From Escherichia phage dhaeg: 64,000 bases of DNA. The translations under genes and the position numbers were made by a program. The stretch lies in sequence record MN850609.1. The stretch is one strand, 5' to 3'. Positions 30,614 to 62,580 of the stretch are shown here, in pieces (the first letter of the stretch is position 1; every line of letters starts with the position of its first letter). The notes beneath the pieces were generated by a model. It was not told the DNA's origin and did not search any database. It saw only the letters and a program-made list of their open reading frames with translations.

Positions 30614-30655
30614 GTTTTACAAAGGGCTTTAGTGATGATACTATAGGCCTATCAA
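30614..30655 (+). promoter_or_regulatory. Early promoter cassette
   Basis: -35 GTTTTAC; -10 TACTAT followed by AGGCCTATCAA. Confidence 0.5.
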
Positions 30656-30682
30656 AAACAAACTAACCAAATGGAAATCAAA

Positions 30683-30961
30683 ATGAAAACTTATCAAGAA
30701 TTTAGTAAATCCCAAAAAGTGGCTCCTATCACTGAAGCCAGTGTTATGAGTGAAGTTATAGCCCTAAACAAAGGCCGTGAAGGTAAACCGGTTATCGGTC
30801 TTAATGGTGATGAACTTAAAGGTACTGTTTATCTGGGCGACGGTTACCATGCTAAAAAAGACGGTGGGAGCATTGTTATTTCCCCGGCTCAAGAATCTTC
30901 TGTAATGAAAACCGTTTACATCGCCACCAAGCACTTTGATATTTTGAAAAAAGCACTTTAA
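30683..30961 (+). CDS. Internal-protein-like protein with capsid-targeting leader
   Basis: Start moved to the MKTYQEF Met (ORF track 30671). Leader MKTYQEF...ITE|A. Preceded by an early promoter cassette. Confidence 0.6.
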   Translation: MKTYQEFSKSQKVAPITEASVMSEVIALNKGREGKPVIGLNGDELKGTVYLGDGYHAKKDGGSIVISPAQESSVMKTVYIATKHFDILKKAL

Positions 30962-30965
30962 AGTT

Positions 30966-31006
30966 ATTTACAACGGGCTCTAGTGATGATACTATAGCCC
31001 TATCAA
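30966..31006 (+). promoter_or_regulatory. Early promoter cassette
   Basis: -35 ATTTAC; -10 TACTAT followed by AGCCCTATCAA. Near-duplicate of the 30614 cassette (GGGCTyTAGTGATGATACTATAG). Confidence 0.5.
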
Positions 31007-31031
31007 AACAAATGAGTGATTGGAGAATAAA

Positions 31032-31217
31032 ATGAAACGTTGTGAATTAATTAGAAATGTTACTGCACTGGCCGCCGTTACTGCTTTTGGCTTTAGTATG
31101 TTTGCAGGATTCATGTTGGATTTGCTTACAACTTCCGAGAATATAATCTCTTTAGTAGTGGCATTCTTAATTGGTTCAATCTCTTTCGTTATGGATAAAA
31201 TCTCTAAAGGTGAGTAA
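31032..31217 (+). CDS. Small hydrophobic protein
   Basis: 61 aa from GGAGAATAAAATGAAA. One predicted TM helix. Early promoter cassette upstream. Confidence 0.45.
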   Translation: MKRCELIRNVTALAAVTAFGFSMFAGFMLDLLTTSENIISLVVAFLIGSISFVMDKISKGE

Positions 31218-31218
31218 A

Positions 31219-31599
31219 ATGTATAAAGTGTATGCGGATTATCAAGCAAATCCATCTGAAAAACCAGATTGCCAAATTGGGTGGGCGCATGACACCCTGC
31301 TTGAAGCGGTAAATGAAGCACAGAAATTAGGATATAGTTATGTAGATATTGTTCAACCGGGTGGAACAGTTATTACTCTTGAAGAATTCAAGAATATCAA
31401 AACAAACTTTTTGCTCTTTGCCGGTGATAACTATTATCCTCGTGGCGGTTATGCTGACTTAATCGCAAAGGCCGCGACTGAAGATGAACTGCGCGATATC
31501 ATTAAAGAAAACGAGAATAAGCCTTGTTACGGTTCCAATCGTTTTGACTGGTGGCAGATTGTCAATGCCAATACCCACACTATTGTAGACGAGGGTTAA
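31219..31599 (+). CDS. Hypothetical protein
   Basis: 126 aa from an internal Met with a GGTGAG RBS (ORF track 31171). Confidence 0.45.
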   Translation: MYKVYADYQANPSEKPDCQIGWAHDTLLEAVNEAQKLGYSYVDIVQPGGTVITLEEFKNIKTNFLLFAGDNYYPRGGYADLIAKAATEDELRDIIKENENKPCYGSNRFDWWQIVNANTHTIVDEG

Positions 31600-31884
31600 A
31601 TGTTATACGTTAAGGTTACTAATCCAGAGAATGGCTATAAATCCGATCAGGTTGCAGCCGAGTTGTTGATTCGAAATTACGGCAAAGATGCCGTGCTTGA
31701 TGTTCAACAGGTTAATATTGGCCGTAGTTCAAGCGATGTTAAACTCAAAGTTAACAGCCATCGCTATAATTCTGTTAACTTTACTTTTTATACCGCAACT
31801 GAAAATGGATTGGTCGAATACGACATCTTTAAAAACCCTTTGAAGATTGCTTCTATTAAACTTGACTATATTAATATGCTTTAA
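31600..31884 (+). CDS. Hypothetical protein
   Basis: 94 aa ORF with ATGA overlap coupling to the upstream gene. Confidence 0.45.
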   Translation: MLYVKVTNPENGYKSDQVAAELLIRNYGKDAVLDVQQVNIGRSSSDVKLKVNSHRYNSVNFTFYTATENGLVEYDIFKNPLKIASIKLDYINML

Positions 31885-31969
31885 GAATTATGTGATATTA
31901 TTACTCTATCATTAATACCCTCTATTACCAAAGGTTCTTCCCTCAAAGAGCCTTTCATAATAGAATTAA

Positions 31970-32043
31970 GGCCCTGTAGCTGGACGGTCAAGCGAGCGAC
32001 TCATAATCGCTGGATGGTGGTTCGATTCCACCCAGGGCCACCA
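31970..32043 (+). tRNA. tRNA with CAU anticodon (Met, or Ile via lysidine)
   Basis: Manual cloverleaf fold. Acceptor GGCCCTG/CAGGGCC, anticodon stem AGCGA/TCGCT, loop CTCATAA, T-arm GGTGG-TTCGATT-CCACC, encoded CCA. Confidence 0.6.
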
Positions 32044-32047
32044 ATTT

Positions 32048-32122
32048 GGATGTGTAGCTCAGTGGTAGAGCAGTTGACTGTTAATCAATTGGTCCATGGT
32101 TCGAATCCATGCATGTCCGCCA
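32048..32122 (+). tRNA. tRNA-Asn (GUU)
   Basis: Manual fold. D-arm GCTC/GAGC, anticodon stem GTTGA/TCAAT, loop CTGTTAA, T-arm CATGG-TTCGAAT-CCATG, CCA end. The acceptor stem has two G·U pairs. Confidence 0.55.
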
Positions 32123-32126
32123 AATA

Positions 32127-32202
32127 CGAGGCATAGCTCAGAAGGAAGAGCAAGGACCTTCTAAGTCCTGGGTCGTAGGTTCGATCCCTACTGTCTCGAC
32201 CA
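32127..32202 (+). tRNA. tRNA-Arg (UCU)
   Basis: Manual fold. Acceptor CGAGGCA/TGTCTCG, anticodon stem AGGAC/GTCCT, loop CTTCTAA, T-arm GTAGG-TTCGATC-CCTAC, CCA end. Confidence 0.7.
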
Positions 32203-33061: not shown

Positions 33062-33065
33062 TGAA

Positions 33066-33087
33066 AGGAGACTTCGGTCTCCTTTTA
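33066..33087 (+). terminator. Intrinsic terminator after the IPIII-like gene
   Basis: GGAGAC-ttcg-GTCTCC hairpin + TTTT. Confidence 0.55.
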
Positions 33088-33120: not shown

Positions 33121-33160
33121 GTTTACACCTCCTTTAAACGTGATACTATAGACCTATCAA
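33121..33160 (+). promoter_or_regulatory. Early promoter cassette
   Basis: GTTTAC-17-TACTAT-AGACCTATCAA. Confidence 0.55.
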
Positions 33161-33184
33161 AACAACAGAGTGAAGGAGAGTAAA

Positions 33185-33448
33185 ATGGATAATTATGGTG
33201 AATTGTTTAATTTCTTTATGAAATGCGTTCCTGAAGAATTTGGTGCTACTGTTAACGATATTAAGGTTATAGGTGATGACCATCCCATATTTGAAACCTA
33301 CGCAGTAATGGGTAATGACGATGGACAGTGGTATACCGTAAAGGTTGTGGTTAATATGTTTGCTGCCGAAGGGTACGTCAAATTGTCTACCAAAGTTTAT
33401 CACGATAACGATTTTGATGCGGAAGATTATTTCAATAATATGAAATAA
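33185..33448 (+). CDS. Hypothetical protein
   Basis: 87 aa from GGAGAGTAAAATG. Early promoter cassette upstream. Confidence 0.45.
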   Translation: MDNYGELFNFFMKCVPEEFGATVNDIKVIGDDHPIFETYAVMGNDDGQWYTVKVVVNMFAAEGYVKLSTKVYHDNDFDAEDYFNNMK

Positions 33449-33450
33449 TT

Positions 33451-33487
33451 GTTTACACGGGCTCATGATTGAGATATTATGAGCCCG
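33451..33487 (+). promoter_or_regulatory. Early promoter with inverted repeat bracketing the -10
   Basis: GTTTAC; -10 TATTAT. Inverted repeat CGGGCTCAT/ATGAGCCCG flanks it. Confidence 0.5.
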
Positions 33488-33505
33488 TAATTTGAGGAGA
33501 GCATA

Positions 33506-33904
33506 ATGAATATCGAAGATAAAGAAATGCAAGAGTTGTATAATTCATTAACGCCTGAACAACAAAAAGCTGCCAAAGAATTAGAGAAAGCTCTTACTTT
33601 CAGCTTGGCAAAAACTGATTGGGCCGCCATGTATGAAGAAAAAAGGAGATCGGAAATTGAAGCTGTCGAGAGAAATGAATGGATTGTAGAAACCAAGATT
33701 TCTGATGGTGGTTGCTCTGTTGAGGTGTCAGCTGTGGTTAAAGGTACTCATGGTGAAAAATCACTAGGTTGGCATAATGAGGCAAACAAATATATTGTTC
33801 TCTCAACGTCAAAAACTTATGGTCAAAGGGTTCCTGTATCCAAAGCTATTATTAAGCAAGCTCAATGGGAAGCCAATGAAATTTGCCTAGCAAAAATGAA
33901 ATAA
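33506..33904 (+). CDS. Hypothetical protein
   Basis: 132 aa. Early promoter with flanking inverted repeat upstream. Confidence 0.45.
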
Positions 33905-33907: not shown

Positions 33908-33945
33908 GTTTACAACCCTCAGAGGACAGGGTATAATGTCCTCAT
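33908..33945 (+). promoter_or_regulatory. Early promoter with inverted repeat bracketing the -10
   Basis: GTTTAC-18-TATAAT. Inverted repeat GAGGACA/TGTCCTC. Confidence 0.55.
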
Positions 33946-33980
33946 GGATTACAAAATATCAACCGACTGAAGGAAATACT

Positions 33981-34574
33981 ATGAACACTTTAAAGAAAAT
34001 CGTTGAATTCATCCGTTCTAAACTGGGTACCGCAATGACTCAGAACCTGTCAATCGAAGACCAGTATACTAAAGCTGCTTCTACCCTGATTGATAAAATT
34101 ACTGAACTCCAGACTGCTCATGTTAAGTCTGTGAATGAAGAAAAACGTATTCGCGAGTTAGCGAATGAAAAAGACCAACTCGCCGCTTCAAAAGAGCGTG
34201 AAATTCGTAAACTGATTAAAGAAGGCGCCGATGTCCAGGTGCATGCTAAACTTGGCCTCCTTTATCGTCGTACAGCTAATCAACTTCGTAAGAAAGCAGA
34301 CGATTATATCGAAATGCGTAATGAAATTAAACTGAAGGTCAAGGAACTTGATGACTCTCGTCAAGAACTGGCTGTTAAGCTCGAGTACATCCGTGAAACT
34401 CGTAATATGGCTGCCCTTGGTATTGCTACTGCCGATGATGTGGTTGAAATCGCTGCACTGACTAAGATTGATATTGAAGATACCCTGCTGCGTGTAGAAA
34501 CGTTTAAAGGCCCACAAGTTGGAATGGATACGACTTCAGCCGATATCGAAGACTACATTAATTCACTTAAGTAA
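33981..34574 (+). CDS. Coiled-coil protein, possibly PspA/IM30-like
   Basis: Start moved to MNTLKK (the track start at 33906 overlaps the promoter). About 197 aa and almost entirely helical/coiled coil, with a PspA-like charge pattern. Confidence 0.4.
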
Positions 34575-34622: not shown

Positions 34623-35177
34623 ATGAGTTTATATGATAACCTTATATCAAATATTGATTGGTTTAAAAATAGTGGTCTTTCCCATGAAACCAATTCAGTT
34701 CTTTATAGAATTCGCCAAGACCTAGGCTATTCAAACGATTTCTTAAGCAGAACATCTAGCCGTGGCGATACTACCAAATTACCTTTTATTTTTGCTTTAG
34801 CTGAAGACCTTTCTTTTGAAGATGCTTTGGAAATTATTGACGTAAATCTGGCTATTCAACGAGTGGAATTCGCTGGACTACGTTATTCAGTATATTCTTT
34901 AAATGAGAGCAATGATTGCGTGCTTCTTAATATGGCAGACGATGATTACCATTTAGTATGCTATGTGGCTTTAGAAAATGGTGATGTATTTGGAATGGTC
35001 GACCGCCGCCCAACTTATACTGATATTAAAAATTATGATAAAGATGAGCTTCTTGATTTGGCGGCTGAGTACACATTAGAGAGTCGTAAACGGAAACGTA
35101 AGCTTAATCGTTTTATTGCTGAATGTCGTGAATATGCTAAAGGGGTTCAAAATGCGAACGTTATATCTGCCAAGTAA
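34623..35177 (+). CDS. Hypothetical protein
   Basis: 184 aa ORF with RBS GGAGGAGAGGAG. The hairpin at 34582-34599 precedes it. Confidence 0.45.
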   Translation: MSLYDNLISNIDWFKNSGLSHETNSVLYRIRQDLGYSNDFLSRTSSRGDTTKLPFIFALAEDLSFEDALEIIDVNLAIQRVEFAGLRYSVYSLNESNDCVLLNMADDDYHLVCYVALENGDVFGMVDRRPTYTDIKNYDKDELLDLAAEYTLESRKRKRKLNRFIAECREYAKGVQNANVISAK

Positions 35178-35511
35178 ACCAGAAAAATTTGTATACGCAG
35201 ACAAGATTGATAAAGACCTTATGCCTCCATTTGGGGCTCTGTCCATGTGCATCGTTGGAATTATAATGATGGTTGTTTGTGGAGATATGAATATCATCAG
35301 TGTTGGAGTCGCCTGGACGCTAGTAATTACAGCTCCTTTTATTACAGTCCTGTGTATGGTATTGATAAATGTGTGGCATCAAAATCATATGAATAAAGGA
35401 TATCGTGGGCGAGTTAAAGAGTGGGAACAAAAATGTGTTTCCCTACAAGAAGAGCACAAAATTAAATGTGCCGAAGAATTTATTAAGGAGGTTCGTAATG
35501 GAACGGCCTAA
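35152..35511 (+). CDS. Membrane protein, paralogue family with C-terminal FIKE motif
   Basis: 119 aa from MRTLYL. Two predicted TM helices. C-terminus ..EEFIKEVRNGTA. Confidence 0.5.
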   Translation: MRTLYLPSKPEKFVYADKIDKDLMPPFGALSMCIVGIIMMVVCGDMNIISVGVAWTLVITAPFITVLCMVLINVWHQNHMNKGYRGRVKEWEQKCVSLQEEHKIKCAEEFIKEVRNGTA

Positions 35512-35851
35512 TCTTGCATCACATGTTTATCAATTGGCTGAATATGATATTGGTGCCAATTTATTATTAGGGATTGCCACCGGTATGCTTGGCGGCTTGG
35601 TTGGTCTGGTAATGACCACGGTTATGGCTGCAATCGAGGGAGTCATGCCCATTGAGATGGGTTTCTATATGATAATCGCTCCGGCTGTCGTGGCTTATTT
35701 TATCCCTCTAGTGTATGATATTTGCCATACAAATGCTTTGAATGCTCCCATCCGTAAGAGATATGCTTTAGAGATGGCTAATTATAATGAGTATGTAAAA
35801 CAAACCAAACGTAATGACCTTGAAACCTTTATTAAGGAATGTAAATCATGA
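35498..35851 (+). CDS. Membrane protein, paralogue family with C-terminal FIKEC motif
   Basis: 117 aa from MERPNL with RBS AAGGAGG. Multiple TM helices. C-terminus ..ETFIKECKS. Confidence 0.5.
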   Translation: MERPNLASHVYQLAEYDIGANLLLGIATGMLGGLVGLVMTTVMAAIEGVMPIEMGFYMIIAPAVVAYFIPLVYDICHTNALNAPIRKRYALEMANYNEYVKQTKRNDLETFIKECKS

Positions 35852-36138
35852 ATAAAATTGAAATTGAAATCCCTGAATACAACGACGAGAAATCTGCAGA
35901 AAAAGCTATCTATGCTCTTCTGAATAAAGTAGATATCATCGAATCCAAATGTGAAGCTATTGCCGATAAGTACGGTATTCAATTCGGAACAGGTGATTAT
36001 GGCTCAGGACGTACATACTATCCGGTCGGTTATGAATGCTCCCAGTGGTTTAAAGATGAAATTGAAAACAATGGCGGTGAAGTTGAAAATGGCGTCGTTA
36101 CAGTTGGTGCCTGGGTCTCCTCTTCGGCAATGTGCTAA
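35848..36138 (+). CDS. Small protein, member 1 of the tandem W-x-S-S-S-x-x-C tail family
   Basis: 96 aa. C-terminus GAWVSSSAMC. Confidence 0.5.
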   Translation: MNKIEIEIPEYNDEKSAEKAIYALLNKVDIIESKCEAIADKYGIQFGTGDYGSGRTYYPVGYECSQWFKDEIENNGGEVENGVVTVGAWVSSSAMC

Positions 36139-36147
36139 GGAAAAGCT

Positions 36148-36429
36148 ATGATGAATGATAATCATAACCATCCAGAGCTTCTGGCCGCAGTAAAAGAAAT
36201 TCATGAAGCTATTCGTCGTGCCGAGGAAATTGCAGATAAATATGAGACTCATTTTAATATATACCCTGCTCGCGGTATGGGCGGTGACTATTATTCTCCT
36301 GGCGCCTTGAAAGCTGACCTTGCCCATTGGGAAGAAGATGGTCATCCTGAATGGGCTATTGTTAATACTCATGACTATACAACTGACCTCGCAACTGGCG
36401 GTTGGGTGTCCTCTTCTTCTGAATGTTAA
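36148..36429 (+). CDS. Small protein, member 2 of the tandem family
   Basis: 93 aa. C-terminus GGWVSSSSEC. Shares the ADKY(G/E) helix with member 1. Confidence 0.5.
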   Translation: MMNDNHNHPELLAAVKEIHEAIRRAEEIADKYETHFNIYPARGMGGDYYSPGALKADLAHWEEDGHPEWAIVNTHDYTTDLATGGWVSSSSEC

Positions 36430-36438
36430 GGAAATATT

Positions 36439-36636
36439 ATGTCTCGTGAATTAGATTGTGCAATCCGAACTGCCGCGGCGGCAATTGAAAACGTTATTCA
36501 AATTTGTAAAGAAGAACGCGAAGAAGCTGATATCTATATTGATGGTGCTCGTGACTTAGAACGACATATAACGCTTTATAACGGTTGTATTACTATTAGT
36601 GGTACCTCTTGGGTGTCCTCTTCTTACGAATGCTAA
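36439..36636 (+). CDS. Small protein, member 3 of the tandem family
   Basis: 65 aa. C-terminus TSWVSSSYEC. Confidence 0.5.
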   Translation: MSRELDCAIRTAAAAIENVIQICKEEREEADIYIDGARDLERHITLYNGCITISGTSWVSSSYEC

Positions 36637-36645
36637 GGTAATAAA

Positions 36646-36858
36646 ATGACTATTGATGAAATTGAAAAACAAATCCGTGAATTAGTACGTAAAGGCCAGT
36701 CCGTGGCTGATGAAACAGGTGAAGAATTTTATGTTTCTGGACGCGGTCAATACATTTCTCCAAAGAATCCAGAATATGATGATTACGAATGGGTCCGTGA
36801 TGACTACGGTATCCCAGAAGGTGAAGGTTTCTGGTTTAGCTCCTCTATGTCTTGCTAA
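36646..36858 (+). CDS. Small protein, member 4 of the tandem family
   Basis: 70 aa. C-terminus GFWFSSSMSC. Confidence 0.5.
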   Translation: MTIDEIEKQIRELVRKGQSVADETGEEFYVSGRGQYISPKNPEYDDYEWVRDDYGIPEGEGFWFSSSMSC

Positions 36859-37344: not shown

Positions 37345-37674
37345 ATGCACAAAGATTCAGTATTCAAATATCTTTTGAAAACAGATAAAGAATTCTATAT
37401 GAATGGGCAAGCTTTCTTGTTCGTCCGTGGTAAACGTGAGATGTTTTATAAATGCGACCTCTCAATGCACCATCATATGTATCATACCCACGGCGAGCCT
37501 ATACTAGGGTTCTCTGGTGACGAGACTAGACACATAGCTATGTACTATGACCATTTTAAGCTCAATGATTGTGGTGACAACGCTTTGGTCTGGAACCCAT
37601 CTTGGAGACGTTGGGATACAGTAGACAGCGATAAATTATTTTTAGAATATTGCAGAAGTGATGTACAACTCTAA
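37345..37674 (+). CDS. His-rich hypothetical protein
   Basis: About 109 aa from MHKDS with RBS GGAGGA. Contains HHHMYHTHGEP. Confidence 0.45.
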   Translation: MHKDSVFKYLLKTDKEFYMNGQAFLFVRGKREMFYKCDLSMHHHMYHTHGEPILGFSGDETRHIAMYYDHFKLNDCGDNALVWNPSWRRWDTVDSDKLFLEYCRSDVQL

Positions 37675-37718
37675 AAACTTGTGTTACTATTACCTTACAC
37701 AAACATGAGGGGAACATT

Positions 37719-37958
37719 ATGTGGTATTATTCTCCACTGTCTGATAAGTCTGATGAGCCGGTACGCATTAGTCGTGCCAAGTTTAAAAAGATTTATGGCT
37801 TTGCCTATAAGAAGTCTGATTACGGTGTTCGTTTTGAAGATGCCCACTGTATCAACGACCCTTATGCAGAAGAAATCTCTAATGAGATAATTCCTATCAT
37901 TAAGAATAATTCTGATGATATGTGGGAATTGCATAACGATTACGTTGCTGAAATTTAA
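37719..37958 (+). CDS. Hypothetical protein
   Basis: 79 aa with an RBS GAGGGGAA upstream. Confidence 0.45.
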   Translation: MWYYSPLSDKSDEPVRISRAKFKKIYGFAYKKSDYGVRFEDAHCINDPYAEEISNEIIPIIKNNSDDMWELHNDYVAEI

Positions 37959-39120: not shown

Positions 39121-39133
39121 TTGCATAAAACAG

Positions 39134-39172
39134 TGTACAAGGTCTATAGGTGTGATACTATAGACCTATCAA
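39134..39172 (+). promoter_or_regulatory. Early promoter cassette with 9-bp inverted repeat around the -10
   Basis: -35 GTGTAC; -10 TACTAT followed by AGACCTATCAA. Inverted repeat GGTCTATAG/CTATAGACC. Confidence 0.5.
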
Positions 39173-39198
39173 AACAACAGAGTGAAATGGAGAATAAA

Positions 39199-39411
39199 AT
39201 GAAACTTTCTAACCAAGCAATCAACATGTTAAACGAAGTTCGTGCAGCTGGTGCTAAATGTCTGATGGTTAACACTCGTGACGGTGACCTTCGTCAAGCA
39301 TTTGGTGAATTGAAATCTGCTGACCTGGTTAAATGTTCGGTTGGTATCGGTAATGCACTTCGTGTATCCTTATCCCCTAAAGGTAAAATGTACTTTTTCA
39401 ACAAAAAGTAA
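39199..39411 (+). CDS. Small hypothetical protein
   Basis: 70 aa from GGAGAATAAAATGAAA (ORF track 39121 includes the promoter). Early cassette upstream. Confidence 0.45.
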   Translation: MKLSNQAINMLNEVRAAGAKCLMVNTRDGDLRQAFGELKSADLVKCSVGIGNALRVSLSPKGKMYFFNKK

Positions 39412-39424
39412 TATACATTCTCGT

Positions 39425-39452
39425 AAGATATGTTATTATAGACCTATCAAAA
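39425..39452 (+). promoter_or_regulatory. Early promoter cassette (weak -35)
   Basis: -10 TATTAT followed by AGACCTATCAAAACAA. Downstream GAGTGAATTGGAGAATAAAATG copies the 39160-39200 leader. Confidence 0.4.
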
Positions 39453-39476
39453 CAAATGAGTGAATTGGAGAATAAA

Positions 39477-39707
39477 ATGAAAGCCATCATGAGTGTTTTA
39501 GCCCTGAGCTTGGTTGCTTTAGCTGCAGTTCCTTTTATTGTTGATGTTGGAGACGAAACACAAGTTGAATCCTCAATCGTTGTCAGTAAAGATGGTACAT
39601 CGGTTAAGATCGGTAATAATCTCCATATGAATCCTAATGGTACTTTAGGTGTTCAGCTCGGTAACACATGTGTAAGCACAACTGGTAAAGTTAATACTTG
39701 CTTCTGA
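39477..39707 (+). CDS. Small secreted/membrane-anchored protein
   Basis: 76 aa from GGAGAATAAAATGAAA. N-terminal signal/TM segment MKAIMSVLALSLVALAAVPF. Confidence 0.45.
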   Translation: MKAIMSVLALSLVALAAVPFIVDVGDETQVESSIVVSKDGTSVKIGNNLHMNPNGTLGVQLGNTCVSTTGKVNTCF

Positions 39708-42190: not shown

Positions 42191-42230
42191 GTTTACATCT
42201 CCGGTAGGCATGATACTATAGACCTATCAA
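42191..42230 (+). promoter_or_regulatory. Early promoter cassette for denV
   Basis: GTTTAC-17-TACTAT-AGACCTATCAA. Inverted repeat ATCTCCGGTAG/CTACAGGAGAT pairs the spacer with the Shine-Dalgarno region. Confidence 0.6.
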
Positions 42231-51917: not shown

Positions 51918-51942
51918 AGGAACCTTCGGGTTCCTTTTTTTG
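51918..51942 (+). terminator. Intrinsic terminator after the nucleotidyltransferase gene
   Basis: AGGAACC-ttcg-GGTTCCT + T7. Confidence 0.65.
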
Positions 51943-51960: not shown

Positions 51961-52000
51961 GTTTACAACCTAGTAGAGCATGTTATTATGGACCTATCAA
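51961..52000 (+). promoter_or_regulatory. Early promoter cassette for the AAA+ ATPase gene
   Basis: GTTTAC-17-TATTAT-GGACCTATCAA. Confidence 0.55.
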
Positions 52001-52026
52001 ATCTACTGAGTGAAACGGAGAATATA

Positions 52027-53007
52027 ATGTTAACTATCAAAATCAACAAAGGTATCTATCGAGGTAATGAAATCTCTGGTACGTTCATGAGTTCAGGTAA
52101 AACCTGGTTCCCTAATAAAATTCATGAATCCGAAGCTCACCTCGGTGACGGCAAGGTATTTGTACAGATTGATGGTGTTGAACGTGGTGTGTGGGTGTTC
52201 AAATGTGACATCGAAATGGAAGGTGCTGAAGCTCCTGCAATGGTCACCGAATCCGCTGAAGAAATGAAACACCGCATCAACAAACGTTTTAAAGTAATGA
52301 ACATGATGACTAACGGAATCATCGATGGTAAAATTCGTTCCCTTATCATCTCTGGTGCCGCAGGTATTGGTAAAACATACTCTTTGGATAAAGCATTACA
52401 AAATGCCCATGAAAATGAAACTATCGAATATAAATCAATCAACGGAAAGATTAGTGGAATCGGTCTTTACGAGCAGCTTTGGAATAACCGCGGCCCTAAT
52501 AGTGTTCTTCTTATTGATGATGTTGATGTATTCTCTGACATGGATATCCTGAACCTTCTGAAAGCCGCATTGGATACTGGTGAAAAACGTAAGGTGTGTT
52601 GGAGCACTTCAAGTTCTTACCTCGACGATAAAAATATCGATAAAGAATTCGAATACGAAGGCACCATCGTGTTCATCACCAACGTTGATATTGACCGTGA
52701 ATTAGAGCGTGGAACTAAACTTGCTCCACACCTCCAGGCTTTAGTATCTCGTTCCGTTTATCTCGACTTGGGTGTTCACTCAAACGAAGAGATTATGGTT
52801 CGGGTTGAAGACGTTATCCTGTCCACTGATATGATGCAAAACCGAGGTCTGACCGATGCCGAGACTTATCAAGCTTTAGCATGGATGAAGGCTAATGTAT
52901 CTCGTCTTCGTAACGTATCATTACGTACAGCTCTTTATCTGGCGGACTTCATTGCCACCGATAAAAATGACTGGAGCGAAATCGCTGAAGTTACACTTCT
53001 GAAATAA
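52027..53007 (+). CDS. AAA+ ATPase with an N-terminal domain of about 100 aa
   Basis: Start moved to MLTIKI after GGAGAATATAATG (ORF track 51904 runs through the promoter). Walker A GAAGIGKTY, Walker B VLLIDDVD, sensor-1-like FITN. Confidence 0.6.
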   Translation: MLTIKINKGIYRGNEISGTFMSSGKTWFPNKIHESEAHLGDGKVFVQIDGVERGVWVFKCDIEMEGAEAPAMVTESAEEMKHRINKRFKVMNMMTNGIIDGKIRSLIISGAAGIGKTYSLDKALQNAHENETIEYKSINGKISGIGLYEQLWNNRGPNSVLLIDDVDVFSDMDILNLLKAALDTGEKRKVCWSTSSSYLDDKNIDKEFEYEGTIVFITNVDIDRELERGTKLAPHLQALVSRSVYLDLGVHSNEEIMVRVEDVILSTDMMQNRGLTDAETYQALAWMKANVSRLRNVSLRTALYLADFIATDKNDWSEIAEVTLLK

Positions 53008-53359: not shown

Positions 53360-53362
53360 TTG

Positions 53363-53401
53363 TTTACATCTCCAGTAGAAATGATACTATAGACCTATCA
53401 A
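53363..53401 (+). promoter_or_regulatory. Early promoter cassette
   Basis: GTTTAC-16-TACTAT-AGACCTATCAA. Imperfect inverted repeat CTCCAGTAG/CTAATGGAGG. Confidence 0.55.
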
Positions 53402-53416
53402 CTAATGGAGGTTATC

Positions 53417-53941
53417 ATGAACGCTAAAGATATTTTTTCACTGATTAATTTTAACAATGGTAATTTCAAATCTGAAAAACAAAGCAAGTTCTTTAACGAC
53501 GTTGCTTGTGGTAATGAGATTACCGTATCTGGAGGAGAGATTTACAAAAGCCGTTGGAACTGGATTGTTATCATCGATTCAGTTGGTATTGTAGAGCTCT
53601 ATAAAAACACTAACAAAAAACGTACTCTTCACTGGAGTCGTGAAACCAATCAAGCTTATCAAGCCGAGCGTAATAAACGTTTAATGCCTACTGAATCTGA
53701 CCTGGCAAACGTTAAATCAGATATCGCTTATTTTGATAACTTGATTGCCGAACAACAAGCGGTTATTGATAAGTTTGACGAAATCAAAGCTTGTAAAGAG
53801 ATTCCTGAATTTATGCGGGAATCAGTAAACGAACAGTATGCCCTCACTTCAGGTCGTATCGAGCAGTACAAATCACAACGAGCTGAACGCCAAGCTCTGC
53901 TTCAGAAATTTGAAGAGCGTTTAAAGACGGTTCTCGCATAA
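53417..53941 (+). CDS. Protein with C-terminal coiled coil (family member A)
   Basis: About 174 aa from MNAKDIF after GGAGGTTATCATG. C-terminus IAYFDNLIAEQQAVIDKFDEI... Confidence 0.5.
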   Translation: MNAKDIFSLINFNNGNFKSEKQSKFFNDVACGNEITVSGGEIYKSRWNWIVIIDSVGIVELYKNTNKKRTLHWSRETNQAYQAERNKRLMPTESDLANVKSDIAYFDNLIAEQQAVIDKFDEIKACKEIPEFMRESVNEQYALTSGRIEQYKSQRAERQALLQKFEERLKTVLA

Positions 53942-53975: not shown

Positions 53976-54004
53976 GTTCTTAATTACTTACTGAGGAAAT
54001 TATT

Positions 54005-54850
54005 ATGTCACAAGCAATTAATCAAATTCGTTCTGAAGTTAAAAAAGTTGTTAAATTTGGTCGTATTCCTAGTTCTAAAGAAGTGGTTGAAAAGGTCCTA
54101 TATATGATGTGGGACAAGTTCAATGTTTGTACTGTTAAAGATGACTTTATTAAAATCTTTGACAAGACTAAAGGTTCGTTTACGTTAGAAGACCGGGTCA
54201 TGAAAACTCTTCGTAAAACAGGTATGTTGTCTCGTGCTAATGCCAAAATTATTCTTAAAAATTATAACAAAGGCTACGACCTTTATGGTCGTTTAATCCC
54301 GGCGATGTCATTTGGTGAAGTTGTTCAAGACCTTCATGCCAACCAACGACGTTTACTGGCTCTTGGCGCTCGACTTGCAAAAGGTCTTGATAAACAAATG
54401 ACATTTAAGACTAACGGTTCAGGTGATTGGATTATCTTTAATATTGTTAACCACCCTGGAAATGAAAATGAGTATACCATTTCGACTTTTAGTGGTTGTC
54501 AATACGACAACTGGAAGTTCCATCTGCGCTTGGCCCTGTCTGAATTAGAACAACACGGTGTTCTTAGTTTTGGTGATGCTGAAACTGGAGTAGGTCAGCG
54601 TATTAAACTTTATAAAATTAAAGACCTGGCTGAAGAGCATTCAGAACAAGCTCCTAAAATGGAACCTGTACCAGTGCGCAGCAATGAGAAACATCAGGCC
54701 CAGATTGAGTATTTTAGCAATTTGCTTACTTGCTTGAATGTTACAATCCAACAACAAGATGATGAGATTTTCCGACTCTCTGGTCTTAATGCCAAAGCTA
54801 AGGCTGAACGCCAGAAATATATCGATATCCTAAATCTTCTTAAGGATTAA
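54005..54850 (+). CDS. Protein with C-terminal coiled coil (family member B)
   Basis: 281 aa. C-terminus IEYFSNLLTCLNVTIQQQDDEI.. parallels member A. Confidence 0.5.
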   Translation: MSQAINQIRSEVKKVVKFGRIPSSKEVVEKVLYMMWDKFNVCTVKDDFIKIFDKTKGSFTLEDRVMKTLRKTGMLSRANAKIILKNYNKGYDLYGRLIPAMSFGEVVQDLHANQRRLLALGARLAKGLDKQMTFKTNGSGDWIIFNIVNHPGNENEYTISTFSGCQYDNWKFHLRLALSELEQHGVLSFGDAETGVGQRIKLYKIKDLAEEHSEQAPKMEPVPVRSNEKHQAQIEYFSNLLTCLNVTIQQQDDEIFRLSGLNAKAKAERQKYIDILNLLKD

Positions 54851-56022: not shown

Positions 56023-56060
56023 GTTTACATCCAAGGACGGATGGAGTATAATCCTTTTAT
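56023..56060 (+). promoter_or_regulatory. Early promoter
   Basis: GTTTAC-18-TATAAT. Small inverted repeat AAGGA/TCCTT around the -10. Confidence 0.5.
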
Positions 56061-56080
56061 CAACTACTGAGGAGAATATC

Positions 56081-57091
56081 ATGACCCGTACTGAATACAT
56101 CAATGCCTTTACTACGTATATCACTGACAATACCCCTCCATTAACCCCATATGAGGTGATAGTTTCCAATATCAATAAATGGGTAGACCAAATTGATGAA
56201 GATTTGTCGCTGTATTTTAAATCTGAAATAGAAAAGATTGCAGGGCGTTTGTTTATCCCTGATATCATAGATACATTTAAAGGTTCTCGACTTCTTTCGC
56301 GGCTGGTTAATAAGGATATCCTTTCAGAGTTTGGCAAAGAGAAACACCCAGGTTCCAGCCACGTTGTTAGCTACCAATGGTTTGGTGATGTTTTAAAAAG
56401 CTATATCAAAATGAAAGGTATGGATCCTAGTGGTCTATTTCCACAGCGTTGGACTAGTGAATTTAAGGCTAACTCTGCATTAATTCTCAAAGCGGCCTCT
56501 AAAACCATAGTTTCTGGTGATTCCCGTACTATTCACCCTATGGCTAATTGCATGATTAAAACAAATAGTTATAAAGGAAAAGCAATTATTTCTGTTATTT
56601 GGTCACCTAATAGGAAACCTAAAGATGACGCGGAAGTTGTAAAGTATCAAGATATTGCTTACGACACCTTGAATATTATCGAACAAGCCTTAGCTTTTAT
56701 GGATACAGTAGAGAAATATGAGACTCAAGAAGTAAAACATTTCTATGGCTGGAAAGGATACGAGGTCTTAGTAAAAGTTCGCGAAATCAAATGCCATGTT
56801 CCAAAAACTGACGCTGAAATTTACCAAGAAAAATGTGAGGAAATTGTGAACACTGATAAAGAGCCTGCTACATTAGAAGACTTGATTAACGACTTGAATA
56901 GCCCTATCATGGCTCCTACACCAATTACTAAATCCAAGTTACCGGAAATCGTTGCCTTAGAAAAAGCGTATAAAGATGCCCTTGCTATTAACAAAAAACT
57001 GACTGGCCAATATACCGCTGCCAAGAAACTTTGGGAAGAGTCTACCAATCGTTTAGACCGTCTTGAACAAGCTCTGGAGCTGTTGAAATGA
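56081..57091 (+). CDS. Protein with C-terminal coiled coil (family member D)
   Basis: About 336 aa from MTRTEY after GAGGAGAATATCATG (ORF track 56021 overlaps the promoter). C-terminus ..[14 protein letters not shown]. Confidence 0.5.
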   Translation: MTRTEYINAFTTYITDNTPPLTPYEVIVSNINKWVDQIDEDLSLYFKSEIEKIAGRLFIPDIIDTFKGSRLLSRLVNKDILSEFGKEKHPGSSHVVSYQWFGDVLKSYIKMKGMDPSGLFPQRWTSEFKANSALILKAASKTIVSGDSRTIHPMANCMIKTNSYKGKAIISVIWSPNRKPKDDAEVVKYQDIAYDTLNIIEQALAFMDTVEKYETQEVKHFYGWKGYEVLVKVREIKCHVPKTDAEIYQEKCEEIVNTDKEPATLEDLINDLNSPIMAPTPITKSKLPEIVALEKAYKDALAINKKLTGQYTAAKKLWEESTNRLDRLEQALELLK

Positions 57092-58312: not shown

Positions 58313-58345
58313 GTTTACAACGATTCCGAAATAGAGTATAATGAA
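58313..58345 (+). promoter_or_regulatory. Early promoter
   Basis: GTTTAC-18-TATAAT. Upstream hairpin CGGTGGG-aaacta-CCGAGCC. Confidence 0.45.
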
Positions 58346-58844
58346 CCTTCAAACAATGATTTAATCGATATGGAGTTTGGATATGAGTACCAAAATTGAA
58401 GTTGGCCGTCACAAAGGCCGTCTGATTGAGCATTCGCTTTACGAGTTGTCGGATTCGGGTTCTTTACCTGACCTAGAATCCGATTTGATTAAAGCTGCTG
58501 CTGACTATATCCATTGGCTTGAAGCTCAACTTCGCTTTGCTGATAAGGCGTTCTGATGAAAACTTCTACTGTAATCTTGTGCTTATGGGGAATTTTTAAT
58601 TTGGGTATGCTTGTTTACTTGGTGGGTCAATTATGAAAACTAAATTAGTCTATACTGAAAAGTTAAATGGTGACAAGGTCTGGAAACTTCTTATCAAAGG
58701 AAGTCCTACCGACCAGTTTATGGCCACCTGTATAGGGTTGTATACCCGTCCTACCAAAAAGATGATTCGTCAATTTAAACGGTTGCATCGCTCATTTTAT
58801 AATGTTTAATAAATACCCTTATCTAATAATGGTAAGGGTTTATT

Positions 58845-60247: not shown

Positions 60248-60300
60248 GTTTACTTCCTCTCCTCACGTGTTATAGTCTATCCTATCAACACATGAGGAGA
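60248..60300 (+). promoter_or_regulatory. Early promoter cassette with 13-bp inverted repeat
   Basis: GTTTAC; -10 TATAGT followed by CTATCCTATCAA. Inverted repeat CTCCTCACGTGTT/AACACATGAGGAG pairs the spacer with the Shine-Dalgarno region. Confidence 0.5.
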
Positions 60301-60478
60301 ACATTATGACTATCCAAGATAAAGAAATTAAAGTCCACCAGTATTATTCAATCAACGGCAAAGCTGTTCTAGTAACTGAAATATCTAGCCTGGACGTGTG
60401 GTATACCATAATTGACCTTAATATTAAAATGATTTGTGACCGTGGTGTATTTTGTTCGATAGCTAAGGAAATTAAATT

Positions 60479-60733
60479 ATGAGCCTGAAATTACATTCAA
60501 TGAAAAATGTCATCACCCTTAATCTGGATGATGAGCGCCTAATTTTTCTCACCGTCACTGATAAGAATATTGAAATTGCAAATGGTCCTAAGACTTATTG
60601 CTGCCCAGTGAAGAATTGGAAGCATGTAACCTTTTTGACCCTGGCCGACCGTCTGAAAGACCTTAAGTTGGATTTGGATATCAAAGATATCCAGTACATT
60701 AAAAATCTTATTGGATACAAACTGTTGAGGTAA
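60479..60733 (+). CDS. Hypothetical protein
   Basis: 84 aa. Confidence 0.4.
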   Translation: MSLKLHSMKNVITLNLDDERLIFLTVTDKNIEIANGPKTYCCPVKNWKHVTFLTLADRLKDLKLDLDIKDIQYIKNLIGYKLLR

Positions 60734-60735
60734 CT

Positions 60736-61029
60736 ATGGGTAAAACTATCCGTCGTAAAGAATTGCCTGTAAAAGATTTTTATTATTCCGGACGCCGTAA
60801 AGCACCATACGGCGTAAGTCAGGAAAGAGTTGAAGAAAATATCTTCCGTTCTGACAAGTGGAAACGTATGCGTGGCGTTGATTCTGAAGTTAAGAATGAA
60901 ATGAACCGCCAACTTCGTAAAGAAGTAAGAAAACTGAAAAAAGATGTTTACAGCGACGATGAACCTGATTACAATACTTCTCATCGAGTTGCAAAACGTA
61001 AATCAAACGAATGCTATCGTTACAGCTGA
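60736..61029 (+). CDS. Basic hypothetical protein
   Basis: 97 aa, Lys/Arg-rich. Confidence 0.4.
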   Translation: MGKTIRRKELPVKDFYYSGRRKAPYGVSQERVEENIFRSDKWKRMRGVDSEVKNEMNRQLRKEVRKLKKDVYSDDEPDYNTSHRVAKRKSNECYRYS

Positions 61030-61168
61030 GGAAAATATGAATATCAAACGTATGCTTTTTAAACAAGGATTATACACTTTAAATGTTGCTCCAAAAGGCG
61101 ATACGACTAAGTGGTCAGTAAATGACTGGATTGAATTTATTGATGAAAACGGTAACTGGAAAATTTAA

Positions 61169-61369
61169 ATGAATCCTGAATCTAAATTATCACAACGAAT
61201 TGCTGAAGCCCGTCGTCAGTTCTTTGAAAATATGATAGCCCAAGGTATTGATGACGAAGTTTTTCTAAACTGGTTTTGGAATAACAAATATTCAAAATGC
61301 TCAGGAGCAATATTGATATCAGCCGCGATGATGTATGAAGGCTGGAAAGGCGCCAAAGCACAAAAATAG
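61169..61369 (+). CDS. Hypothetical protein
   Basis: 66 aa. Confidence 0.35.
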   Translation: MNPESKLSQRIAEARRQFFENMIAQGIDDEVFLNWFWNNKYSKCSGAILISAAMMYEGWKGAKAQK

Positions 61370-61405
61370 TTTACAAACTCTTGGGACCAGAGTATAATGG
61401 TCCCA
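61369..61405 (+). promoter_or_regulatory. Early promoter with inverted repeat bracketing the -10
   Basis: GTTTAC-18-TATAAT. Inverted repeat GGGACCA/TGGTCCC. Confidence 0.55.
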
Positions 61406-61437
61406 CGGATTATAAATTTTAAACTGAGGAAATTATT

Positions 61438-61767
61438 ATGTCACAAGCTATTAAAAACGTACTGAACTCTTTCGCTTTCGATAAAGTTAACGAACTGATG
61501 AAAACCGGCTTTGTAACTCCTCAGGTTCTTGACCAATGGGTTGCTGAACTGTTACCAATCATGCACTCTAAAGACCAAAAAATTGGTAAGAACGGTATTC
61601 GTGAAATCCTGGTTCAATATATTCTCGACGAGTTTGATGTGGCCGCCTTTGGTGTCGAATCTAAAGCTTGGCAGCCGGGTGAAATCACAGACAAAACCAT
61701 CCGTCGTATGAAGAATCAACGTAAGAAAAAATTCGTTGACCTGAAAATTGTTAAGGCTGCTAAATGA
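61438..61767 (+). CDS. Hypothetical protein
   Basis: 109 aa with RBS GAGGAAATTATTATG. Early promoter upstream. Confidence 0.45.
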   Translation: MSQAIKNVLNSFAFDKVNELMKTGFVTPQVLDQWVAELLPIMHSKDQKIGKNGIREILVQYILDEFDVAAFGVESKAWQPGEITDKTIRRMKNQRKKKFVDLKIVKAAK

Positions 61768-62012
61768 GTAATTTGCCTGAAGATGTATCGGTTATAATAG
61801 TCCTTAAAGCTTTAGCCGGTTTCCAACGTACCCCTATGATGAATAATAGCGAAACTATTATAAAAGCGGCTAATATGTTAAGTGGAAGTCATCGCGATTT
61901 CAGGATATTTCCTATAAGCTCTAAGACCACTTATATGAAAATGCCCGATCCTAAAATAGCTTGGGACGAAGGCATGACATTAAATGAATTTGAGGATTAT
62001 TTAAATGATTAA
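61764..62012 (+). CDS. Hypothetical protein
   Basis: 82 aa, overlap-coupled. Confidence 0.4.
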   Translation: MSNLPEDVSVIIVLKALAGFQRTPMMNNSETIIKAANMLSGSHRDFRIFPISSKTTYMKMPDPKIAWDEGMTLNEFEDYLND

Positions 62013-62271
62013 AATAAAACTCTCTAATTACGATAAAAACTTGGAAATGATTGCTATGAAAGAAGAACTCCTGAATGATGTCCGCTTTACTGGTTATGCA
62101 GTTCAATTTAATAGTGATGGGGTTCTCCAGATTGAGGGTGACCACTTTATTATTGAATATGAATTTAAACAGTACTGGCTATACGCTAAAGATGAGGTCG
62201 GCGGTATTGATTACGTTGATGAGTTTGATAATCTTGATGATGCACTAGAAGGAGCCCGATTCCTACAATGA
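62005..62271 (+). CDS. Hypothetical protein
   Basis: 88 aa, overlap-coupled. Confidence 0.4.
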   Translation: MIKIKLSNYDKNLEMIAMKEELLNDVRFTGYAVQFNSDGVLQIEGDHFIIEYEFKQYWLYAKDEVGGIDYVDEFDNLDDALEGARFLQ

Positions 62272-62531
62272 CGCCTGTATCCATAACATTAGCTTATGAA
62301 GGCTTAGGATTTTTCTTAATAGATAACTATATGAATGTTGAGTTTATTTGCGGAGAGACTTCTGAAGTGTGGAAGTCTCATATTTCCAAATACAACCAAT
62401 CCGAATATTTAGTCCTTTACCAACAATTCTGCCTTTATATTCAAAGCCAAGGATTTGAAGGAGCCCCTTCCTTCGAAGAGTTCAAAAAAATTCTTGAAAC
62501 AGTATTTCAGGCTTATTGCTTACTCCGTTGA
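62268..62531 (+). CDS. Hypothetical protein
   Basis: 87 aa, overlap-coupled. Confidence 0.4.
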   Translation: MTPVSITLAYEGLGFFLIDNYMNVEFICGETSEVWKSHISKYNQSEYLVLYQQFCLYIQSQGFEGAPSFEEFKKILETVFQAYCLLR

Positions 62532-62580
62532 TGCTTTAAACGGGTCTTCAAATACTATGATATAATAGACCTATGATTTG
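62532..62580 (+). promoter_or_regulatory. Promoter upstream of gene 55 (MotA-box-like TGCTTTA plus -10)
   Basis: TGCTTTA ... TACTAT/TATAAT, then TAGACCTATGA. Confidence 0.35.

Follow-up and report, generated by a model that had tools for sequence, protein, structure and literature searches.

The early region of Escherichia phage dhaeg (MN850609.1) raises the question of why its T4-type early promoters recur as cassettes whose core is so often enclosed by an inverted repeat, and whether that repeat acts in the DNA or in the RNA. The window examined here is the whole analysed stretch of 64,000 nucleotides (nt). An 8-kb probe from the window matched Escherichia phage dhabil at 98.7%, with further matches to other Dhakavirus genomes (JS98, JS10), by which the window is assigned to a JS98/dhabil-like, T4-type Dhakavirus. 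The annotations of dhabil and JS98 place 30–64 kb in an early plus-strand block that runs through tRNA and e.x genes, e, denV, regB, tk, nrdC.x and 49 up to gene 55. We consider it reasonably probable that the repeats belong to cassettes of the promoter-early stem-loop (PeSL) type in a T-even-like phage, with the promoter core inside an inverted repeat, a hairpin that would form only in read-through RNA, and two classes of hairpin. The co-variation of the two arms, on which this reading is built, is a direct observation.

Co-variation of the inverted-repeat arms

Promoters were collected by a rule that required GTTTAC with at most one mismatch, a spacer of 16–18 nt, a TAnnnT hexamer at most one mismatch from TATAAT, TACTAT or TATTAT, and, within 12–65 nt, a Shine–Dalgarno (SD) sequence and an ATG that opens an open reading frame (ORF) of at least 40 codons. 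Scanning of the window, of dhabil positions 1–116,888 and of T4 returned 18, 41 and 35 sites, respectively, every one of them on the early strand; those in the window are all on the plus strand between 30.6 and 61.4 kb, each 12–65 nt upstream of its SD, ATG and ORF. The −35 and spacer of each promoter were then paired with its own −10-to-ATG segment and with the segments of other promoters (20,000 permutations per genome; in the window, both for the rule-based sites and, separately, for a hand-picked set). Own partners paired better than permuted partners in the window (−12.7 versus −8.6 kcal/mol, z = −6.8), in dhabil (−11.9 versus −8.4 kcal/mol, z = −8.7) and in T4 (−11.9 versus −7.7 kcal/mol, z = −9.6), with 0 of 20,000 permutations in each case, and the 24 nt upstream of the −35, taken as a control, gave no pairing signal.

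Individual promoters followed across lineages behave in the same way. At the regB promoter, the arm sequences of five lineages are unrelated and yet complementary in every one: ATCTCCTGTAG/CTACAGGAGAT, GTGTAGGAGT/ACTTCTACAC, AGGGCTAT/ATAGCCCT (nested inside TCTCC/GGAGA), TTTCTCCTCTTTATG/CATAAAGAGGAGAAA and, in T4, UUCCUCUUGAC/GUUAAGAGGAG. For the promoter at 61369, an IMG/VR pattern with N at all stem positions retrieved 13 distinct natural sequences among the matches listed (about 20 stretches were listed per IMG/VR scan, which bounds the depth of orthologue sampling), and all 104 of their 104 cells are paired. Both sides have changed at two of these pairs (C-G/G-C and G-C/A-U), all one-sided changes give G·U, the covariation score of 0.313 exceeds the 0.180 of shuffled alignments (0 of 500), and slid registers pair at only 36–51%. 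A sequence-only reading of this DNA had made its case depend on arms that co-vary from copy to copy, and they do. One fixed-register covariation model for all promoters was ruled out, the arms lying in at least four registers (k = 5, 2, −1 and −10).

Could the repeats have no structural function and be by-products of cassette duplication or gene conversion, their complementarity inherited or accidental, as with CTCC in a spacer against GGAG in an SD? The cassettes are plainly homologous repeats, up to 90% identical, non-cognate CTCC and GGAG are complementary as well, so that swapped spacers occlude the SD equally, and several copies have no significant hairpin. We nevertheless regard this as very improbable, because inheritance from a common cassette would raise the off-diagonal scores too and cannot yield an own-partner excess, which here amounts to 7–10 standard deviations in three genomes. 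The compensatory double changes with exclusively G·U intermediates at unconstrained positions, and the orthologous regB arms that are unrelated but always complementary, likewise argue against it.

Folding of the read-through segments against shuffles, with z-scores for 12 of the 18 sites, was among the checks proposed by the sequence-only reading and gave a divided answer. Five sites (44321, 42191, 33451, 39133 and 60248) reached z = −2.7 to −5.2 and 61369 reached −2.1, whereas the remaining six (48456, 51961, 33121, 33908, 30966 and 53362; z = +0.8 to −1.6) have a weak hairpin or none. Strong bracketing hairpins are present in roughly 10–12 of the 18 sites, and the earlier claim that hairpins bracket the −10 in many copies stands for that part of the family.

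A probable read-through RNA hairpin and its two classes

The kind of mismatch tolerated inside the helices bears on whether the repeat works as DNA or RNA. With every mismatch type carrying an equal penalty in helix calling, the internal mismatches of 63 distinct helices comprised 20 G·T and 2 A·C, an asymmetry expected of a single-stranded molecule of the sense strand and unexpected for a cruciform or a protein-bound palindrome; it points to a hairpin that acts as a sense-strand RNA structure. An alternative interpretation is that the inverted repeat is a DNA-level element, a cruciform or the site of a dimeric protein, that tunes promoter strength or targets recombination. The PeSL authors (Arbiol 2010, PMC2839356; Comeau 2014, PMC4122927) speculated on a DNA-binding protein that recognises the stem-loop, the arms border the region melted by RNA polymerase, and the class A loops described below are short (4–8 nt). 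We consider this improbable because the arm sequences differ wholly between copies and between orthologues, which speaks against a sequence-specific protein, and because a cruciform, which needs pairing within each of the two strands, would not be expected to show the 20:2 ratio or one-sided changes that are only G·U. The class B loops, at 17–45 nt, would also be unfavourable for extrusion, and pairing drops to its weakest behind terminators that block read-through, a dependence that a DNA function would not have.

The transcript concerned can be narrowed further. The usual distance from the −10 to +1 is 7 nt, and start sites are placed here on that premise. Because the spacer, which holds the 5′ arm, precedes the start of the cassette's own transcript, the hairpin is possible only in read-through RNA; we infer this confinement from the 7-nt distance. 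Promoters that follow an intrinsic terminator pair at near-background levels (−8.9 versus −12.0 kcal/mol, one-sided p = 0.056), and the three such sites in the window have z = +0.07 (48456), +0.8 (51961) and −1.2 (33121).

The hairpins may instead be attenuators or terminators of upstream transcription, as first proposed for PeSL cassettes, with any translational control incidental. In support, one RB49 PeSL stem-loop cut lacZ expression as strongly as rrnB T1 (PMC2839356), although that reporter result is equally consistent with blocked translation, and strong hairpins tend to alternate with canonical upstream terminators as if the two were functionally equivalent, the latter being present at only 3 of the 18 window sites (33121, 48456 and 51961), all cassettes with weak stems. 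However, the 77 helices all lack a T-rich tail (at least 5 T in 8 nt; the mean is 2.0), so that they are not canonical intrinsic terminators; the tails read ATCAAAA, AATTTGAG or A-rich spacers between SD and ATG. The class B arms moreover coincide exactly with the SD, 3–8 nt before the ATG, which a terminator would not need. We therefore think this explanation unlikely, though less so than a DNA-level element.

What the hairpin of the preferred, read-through RNA reading would do depends on where its 3′ arm falls, and the positions of these arms are bimodal. In class A, the 3′ arm begins 0–11 nt from the first base of the −10 hexamer and ends at about +1, 17–43 nt before the ATG, leaving the hexamer in the stem or the loop; class A hairpins overlap the −10 at 30966, 33451, 33908, 39133 and 61369. 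In class B (42191, 44321, 53362, 60248, 39411 and, weakly, 33121), the 5′ arm is again in the spacer, and the 3′ arm contains the SD and ends 3–8 nt before the ATG (3–6 nt at these window sites). The predicted probability that the SD is unpaired is 0.00–0.25 in read-through RNA compared with 0.45–0.91 in the promoter-proximal transcript for 42191, 44321, 53362, 60248 and 33121 (39411 lay outside this analysis), and is 0.69–0.91 for the class A sites 33451, 39133, 61369 and 30966, where the modelled hairpins occupy the spacer and so would, if anything, leave the SD accessible. On the comparison of own with swapped spacers given below, SD sequestration was rejected as the one explanation of every copy, and two classes were adopted in its place. 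These predictions also run against a proposal of the sequence-only reading, that RegB would cleave the GGAG-containing arms of read-through RNA: in such RNA, the SD-occluding class is predicted to have its GGAG base-paired (SD unpaired 0.00–0.25 at 44321, 42191 and 60248), which would make RegB cleavage less likely rather than more.

Each unit would accordingly be read in the order upstream stop codon, A-rich UP-like stretch, strong T4-type sigma-70 promoter (GTTTAC, 17–18 nt, TGn and TAnnAT), very short leader beginning around TATCAAC, and GGAG-type SD with ATG, the inverted repeat enclosing the promoter core. With its 5′ arm upstream of the start, the hairpin would be impossible in RNA from the cassette's own promoter and would form only in transcripts arriving from upstream. 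At a class B gene, read-through RNA would be poorly translated and its GGAG shielded, and own-promoter RNA would be open; at a class A gene, the −10 and discriminator would be enclosed and the ribosome site left free, and the hairpin might, in line with the proposal of the PeSL authors, attenuate read-through RNA or punctuate it, might affect RNA processing or stability, or might keep the spacer from interfering with the ribosome site. We infer all these functional consequences, like the position of +1, from the arrangement of the sequence. More tentatively, a promoter set within a hairpin may be a general RNA-level rule of the Tevenvirinae (Dhakavirus, T4 and, for regB, three further lineages), by which cassettes would mark an RNA by its origin: open if started at the cassette itself, and if started upstream either closed at the SD (class B) or capped, for insulation or processing, by a hairpin that encloses the −10 (class A). 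If so, this would explain part of the 'extra' conservation in T4 early promoters and would give a post-transcriptional share to the still unexplained rapid shut-off of early genes after the early promoters stop.

Several observations weigh against the RNA-level PeSL reading. Of the 20 G·T pairs, nine join the −10 hexamer to the TGn region, both constrained by the promoter, and without these nine the ratio of G·T to A·C is about 9–11 to 2. The contrast between terminators and hairpins has a p of just 0.056 and comes from sequences that are partly redundant. In about one site in three no hairpin beats shuffles, so the structure is not obligatory. Over all sites, own and swapped spacers occlude the SD to nearly the same degree (0.42 versus 0.36), because many spacers carry a generic CTCC; occlusion is thus not specific to the own spacer, and co-variation of the SD part alone does not prove a class B function. 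The terminator/attenuator role published for PeSL stem-loops is not supported by the tails seen here. Both promoter activity in dhaeg and the position of +1 are deduced from near-identity to T4 early promoters such as those of denV and regB, which suggests that the sites fire as promoters.

The promoter family and its members

A window scan for GTTTAC-N15–19-TACTAT returned 5 exact matches, all on the plus strand, where 0.05 were expected; the motif search that the sequence-only reading had called for thus places the family far beyond chance. A tolerant scan that required the post −10 extension found 9 copies, all on the plus strand and 0 on the minus strand, and a tenth extended copy, with a degenerate −35, lies at 39411. 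A generic sigma-70 consensus scan was not enriched (55 versus 48 and 53 versus 51 expected), so that only the T4-type consensus is informative, and an Rfam search of the window returned three tRNAs and nothing else. A repeat finder independently recovered the loci as direct-repeat families of 60–85 nt (D1–D4). An upstream ORF ends 0–12 nt before the −35 at 12 of the 15 sites examined, aaaAAa.t precedes GTTTAC in the −35-flanking consensus, and an SD and start codon close the unit at 18 of 18 sites, with GGAG in 13 of the 18 SDs. Of the 18 rule-based sites about 16 are credible, and the cassette total of the early-gene region is put at about 16–18 copies.

The claim of at least 15 cassettes therefore stands for early-promoter-like sites in general, but not for the form TACTAT followed by AGACCTATCAA, of which there are 7 exact and 3 one-mismatch copies. 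The extension itself, (A/G)G(A/G/C)CCTATCAA, is found on 10 window sites (7 exact, 3 with one mismatch), and the sites outside this subfamily carry TATAAT, TATTAT or TATAGT and a quite different post −10 sequence; the extension is hence the mark of a subfamily, and not near-invariant as had been thought. Nor was anything found in support of an additional bound factor at TAGACCTATCAA. TATCAA(C) sits at the predicted +1, also in T4 early promoters, and TG(A/G)TA in the extended −10 and TATCA at +1 are complementary, for example in cassettes with TGATACTAT...TATCAA (42211–42230); in the predicted folds of extended copies the two join in a small apical helix of 5 bp (UGAUA/UAUCA). TATCA is present in 70 of 129 promoters with TGn versus 1 of 27 without it, an association that common cassette ancestry could explain equally well.

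The individual sites are all on the plus strand. Cassette 8 (denV; 42191–42248; GTTTAC, TACTAT at 42214–42219, AGACCTATCAA, ATG at 42246) has class B arms ATCTCCGGTAG (42197–42207) and CTACAGGAGAT (42231–42241) that cover the SD with one G·A mismatch (z = −3.1). Cassette 9 (regB; 44321–44380; GTTTAC, TACTAT at 44344–44349, AGACCTATCAA, ATG at 44378) has perfect 11-bp class B arms at 44327–44337 and 44361–44371 over its GGAG (z = −2.9); the repeat finder places it in D3 and aligns it with the denV cassette at 90% identity across 67 nt. Cassette 12 (nrdC.8; 53362–53419; GTTTAC, TACTAT at 53385–53390, AGACCTATCAA, ATG at 53417) pairs ATCTCCAGTAG (53368–53378) with CTAATGGAGGT (53402–53412), a class B helix with one A·G mismatch and one wobble (z = −1.6) whose 9-bp core, CTCCAGTAG/CTACTGGAG, is perfect in dhabil. 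Cassette 6 (39133–39201; GTGTAC, TACTAT at 39156–39161, AGACCTATCAA, ATG at 39199) has a perfect 10-bp class A hairpin, AGGTCTATAG (39140–39149) with CTATAGACCT (39158–39167; z = −2.7).

Other members also carry AGACCTATCAA or a variant of it. Cassette 7 (39411–39479; ATATAC, TATTAT at 39434–39439, AGACCTATCAA, ATG at 39477) has arms ATTCTC (39417–39422) and GAGAAT (39468–39473) across the SD. Cassette 1, upstream of an internal-head-protein gene (30615–30685; −35 TTTTAC at 30615–30620, −10 TACTAT at 30639–30644, ATG at 30683), has the extension AGGCCTATCAA and imperfect class A arms (30623–30633 and 30640–30650) and belongs to D4. Cassette 2 (30966–31034; ATTTAC, TACTAT at 30990–30995, ATG at 31032) has the extension AGCCCTATCAA, in which an A-to-C change is matched by GGGCT in the spacer, and class A arms GGGCTCTAGT (30975–30984) and ACTATAGCCC (30991–31000) that overlap the −10 (z = −1.6). 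Three cassettes follow intrinsic terminators on the same strand. A terminator-like TTCG-tetraloop hairpin, AAAGGAGACTTCGGTCTCCTTT (33064–33085), lies just upstream of cassette 3 (e.8 homologue; 33121–33187; GTTTAC, TACTAT at 33144–33149, AGACCTATCAA, ATG at 33185), the classical layout of a terminator and then a promoter, and the arms of that cassette, CTCCTTTA (33129–33136) and TGAAGGAG (33171–33178) across the SD, are weak (z = −1.2). A terminator with an 11-bp stem, a TTCG loop and a T-run (48418–48443) ends 12 nt upstream of cassette 10 (48456–48515; GTTTAC, TACTAT at 48479–48484, AGACCTATCAA, ATG at 48513), where only TCCTC/GAGGA pairs and the hairpin is not significant (z = 0.07). A third, GGAACCTTCGGGTTCC plus T7 (51918–51935), lies upstream of cassette 11 (nrdC.10 homologue; 51961–52029; GTTTAC, TATTAT at 51984–51989, GGACCTATCAA, ATG at 52027), whose arms AGTAGA/TCTACT are weak (z = +0.8).

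Outside these, two cassettes have 13-bp hairpins. Cassette 4 (33451–33508; GTTTAC, TATTAT at 33475–33480, ATG at 33506) lacks the AGACC extension and forms a class A hairpin from ACGGGCTCATGAT (33457–33469) and ATTATGAGCCCGT (33476–33488; −21.5 kcal/mol, z = −5.2), two pairs of which are compensated in the T4 orthologue, ATAGGCT./GAGCCTAT. Cassette 14 (55.6; 60248–60308; GTTTAC, TATAGT at 60271–60276, CTATCCTATCA, ATG at 60306) has class B arms TCTCCTCACGTGT (60258–60270) and ACACATGAGGAGA (60288–60300) with one C·A mismatch (−22.8 kcal/mol, z = −4.7). This repeat and those of denV, regB and cassette 6 are the four that the sequence-only reading had quoted, and all four are present where it had placed them. 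Cassette 15 (55.2; 61369–61440; GTTTAC, TATAAT at 61393–61398, ATG at 61438) has an 8-bp class A hairpin, TGGGACCA (61382–61389) with TGGTCCCA (61398–61405), that holds the −10 in its loop (z = −2.1), and cassette 13 (nrdC.4; 56023–56083; GTTTAC, TATAAT at 56047–56052, CCTTTTATCAA, ATG at 56081) has a weak bracket only, AAGGA/TCCTT. At cassette 5 (e.6; 33908–33983; GTTTAC, TATAAT at 33932–33937, ATG at 33981) a class A helix of GAGGACA (33922–33928) and TGTCCTC (33937–33943) is present but no better than shuffles (z = −0.5). The dhabil annotation starts e.6 at an ATG (33936) that overlaps the −10 (TATAATG), and the SD-supported start, as in the JS98 annotation, is 33981, 45 nt further downstream; cassettes can thus help annotators to place true start codons.

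Three further sites are promoter-like. That at 37661–37721 (ATGTAC, TACTAT at 37685–37690, ATG at 37719; arms TTGTGT, 37679–37684, and ACACAA, 37697–37702) is weaker and an uncertain member; that of a pin-like gene (58313–58385; GTTTAC, TATAAT at 58337–58342, ATG at 58383) is conserved in T4 (T4 47452) and has no convincing hairpin; and that within a coding region at 60946–61039 (GTTTAC, TACAAT at 60970–60975; arms CGATGA, 60957–60962, and TCATCG, 60981–60986), also conserved in T4 (T4 41261), is again an uncertain member. The family probably does not extend to 62580, the end coordinate given by the sequence-only reading. The gene 55 leader (62532–62600) reads TGCTTTA-N14-TACTAT with an overlapping TATAAT-AGACCTATGAT (62561–62577), and because it has a TGCTTTA MotA-like box and no GTTTAC −35, its sequence is probably that of a MotA-dependent middle promoter; it shares the discriminator AGACCTAT with the early cassettes.

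Gene replacement at cassettes and comparison with known systems

As direct repeats of 60–85 nt, up to 90% identical, the cassettes offer patches of homology through which intervening genes can be deleted, inserted or replaced, and breakpoints within cassettes would be the expected trace of homologous exchange between them. Comparison with JS98, in terms of indels and replacements within 30–64 kb, revealed about 15 events, 7 of which touch a cassette, with four breakpoints inside cassette sequence. JS98 has a replacement for the internal-protein gene that lies between cassettes 30615 and 30966 (30704–30964); this swap, like that of 48518–48752 below, stops at a cassette edge, the alignment resuming exactly at the second −35, and another internal-protein gene of JS98 starts at its own cassette. 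The unit of cassette 7 and its ORF (39412–39705) is absent from JS98. Between e and denV, JS98 carries ipIII and orf114 (1105 bp), whose two bounding cassettes overlap by 13 nt in AGTTTACATCTCC, and the denV cassette of the window is a chimera of a 5′ part of the JS98 ipIII type and a 3′ part of the JS98 denV type. The ORF after cassette 48456 (48518–48752) is replaced in JS98 from 5 nt past the ATG, and cassette 51961 is tandemly duplicated there. In the window, a 69-amino-acid ORF (44107–44316) lies between a stop codon and the regB cassette, ending 4 nt before the latter. We caution that 7 of 15 does not clearly exceed what breakpoints at random gene junctions would give (about 36% per event, about 5 expected), that a cassette is touched in 1 of 6 events in the dhabil comparison, and that the indels at 35160–35484, 46196–46400, 49497–49681 and 61771–62003 are free of cassettes. 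Cassette-mediated shuffling, raised by the sequence-only reading, may account for those window/JS98 indels that break inside cassettes; the counts do not establish an excess over chance.

Several neighbouring features differ among these genomes. The 69-amino-acid ORF occurs in some Dhakaviruses (L035–L037 context), is absent from dhabil and JS98, and is coupled to vs.4 through TAATG. The segment 35160–35484 (324 bp) is missing from both dhabil and JS98; at the junction their alignments share 21 nt, a sign of deletion between short direct repeats rather than cassettes. Around 28283–28293 the window lacks a 640-bp homing-endonuclease gene that dhabil has (L001 5984–6634) between the genes for a DNA end protector (gp2-like, dhabil_209) and a tail completion protein (dhabil_207). 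Three tRNA genes (31970–32199) lie between cassettes 30966 and 33121, and JS98 has about 880 bp extra beside this cluster. A second, promoter-less family of repeated leaders consists of three intercistronic direct repeats of 48 nt (36111–36158, 36402–36449 and 36609–36656; TTGGGTGTCCTCTTC...TAAGGAAAT..ATG) in a tandem array of small ORFs (35848–36858). A 45-nt repeat (53977–54021 and 61410–61454, 84% identical) spans the leader and first codons (MSQA..) of the genes that begin at 54005 and 61438, which have paralogous N termini and a common 5′ untranslated region.

The cassettes are of the PeSL kind already described, in a genus where it had barely been noted, and are not a new element. The PeSL definition in PMC2839356 comprises an upstream stop codon in an AT-rich region and then, at the 3′ end, SD and ATG; the stem-loop is proposed there to terminate or attenuate transcription and the cassette to serve as a substrate for recombination, PeSL-like sequences are noted in JS98, and inverse PCR on infected cells served as the assay for mini-circles formed by recombination between cassettes. 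Its stem-loops are sorted by position into five subclasses, of which those between −35 and −10 or across the −10 are the most frequent, and on this account we rejected a reading of the legend in PMC4122927 ('stem-loops just upstream of the promoter') as excluding stems that bracket the −10. The latter paper extended PeSLs to T4/PST (TTTACW-N17-TAYWAT) and KVP40/nt-1. As in RB49/phi1, T4/PST and KVP40/nt-1, dhaeg has a stop codon, an AT-rich stretch, an early promoter, a stem-loop at or near the core (with G-T pairs), SD and ATG, which agrees with the PeSL identity proposed by the sequence-only reading, as well as many copies in variable early regions and some cassette-bounded indels. RB49, too, has −10-bracketing stems, for example GGGAGT-..TAAAAT-ACTCCC; unlike its cassettes, those of dhaeg have a T4-type promoter (GTTTAC / TGnTAnnAT rather than TTGACA/TATAAT) and stems that are not polyG/polyC. 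Pairing between spacer and downstream segment was not significant in the first 50 kb of RB49 (z = −0.9), since in RB49 the spacer often contains the whole stem. The sections of PMC2839356 and PMC4122927 covered here hold no description that we found of an SD-occluding class or of a sense-strand G·U bias. What is added is modest, namely quantitative co-variation, a sense-strand RNA signature, the division into two classes and the same property in T4; yet it gives the PeSL concept, whose stem arms were formerly drawn by eye, a quantitative and falsifiable basis, and the RNA signature confines the candidate functions to effects on read-through RNA.

T4 is the natural point of comparison, since its signal is as strong (z = −9.6) and genetics and transcript mapping are easy there, and the translation of its early genes may depend on the promoter from which the RNA came. 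T4 early promoters are known to have 'additional regions of consensus' (Hinton 2010, PMC2988021; Nolan et al. 2006, PMC1524935), and GTTTAC, an A-rich upstream stretch, TGn, TA(c/t)(t/a)AT and t-A-t-.-a-a around +1 are common to the window, dhabil and T4 consensus sequences. The T4 denV promoter has an identical TACTATAGACCTATCAAC. AGACC in the discriminator is frequent only in Dhakavirus copies, the commonest T4 form being ACAACTATCAAC, and is a feature of a Dhakavirus subfamily. Very strong −10-bracketing repeats occur at the T4 (NC_000866) early promoters 65799 (ipII; 14 bp, TCCTAGAATTGTGA/TCACAATTCTAGGA), 73939 (ipI), 20612 and 129918, and no discussion of them was found in the T4 reviews Hinton 2010 and Uzan & Miller 2010. 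These two and Nolan 2006 likewise contain no earlier account of co-varying inverted repeats at T4 early promoters, although the older primary literature was outside the scope of the search and a prior description is possible.

Two further T-even systems are close. The internal-protein genes of the T-even phages are flanked by homologous early-promoter sequences and swapped between relatives (Repoila et al. 1994 as summarised in PMC2839356), just as a dhaeg internal-protein gene between cassettes is replaced in JS98 and JS98 ipIII with orf114, and a further internal-protein gene, are cassette-bounded insertions; cassettes also mark likely recombination joints in the Dhakavirus genomes used for phage therapy. 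The T4 genes e, soc, 49 and I-TevI have hairpins that sequester the ribosome-binding site and enclose an internal promoter (Uzan & Miller 2010, PMC3014915). Class B resembles them in that the 5′ arm lies upstream of the proximal start and the 3′ arm on the SD or AUG, the long RNA being closed and the proximal RNA open, here as modelled. In those T4 genes, however, the internal promoter is late and expression is delayed, whereas in dhaeg the promoter is early and the arrangement, known from sequence, is found at many genes.

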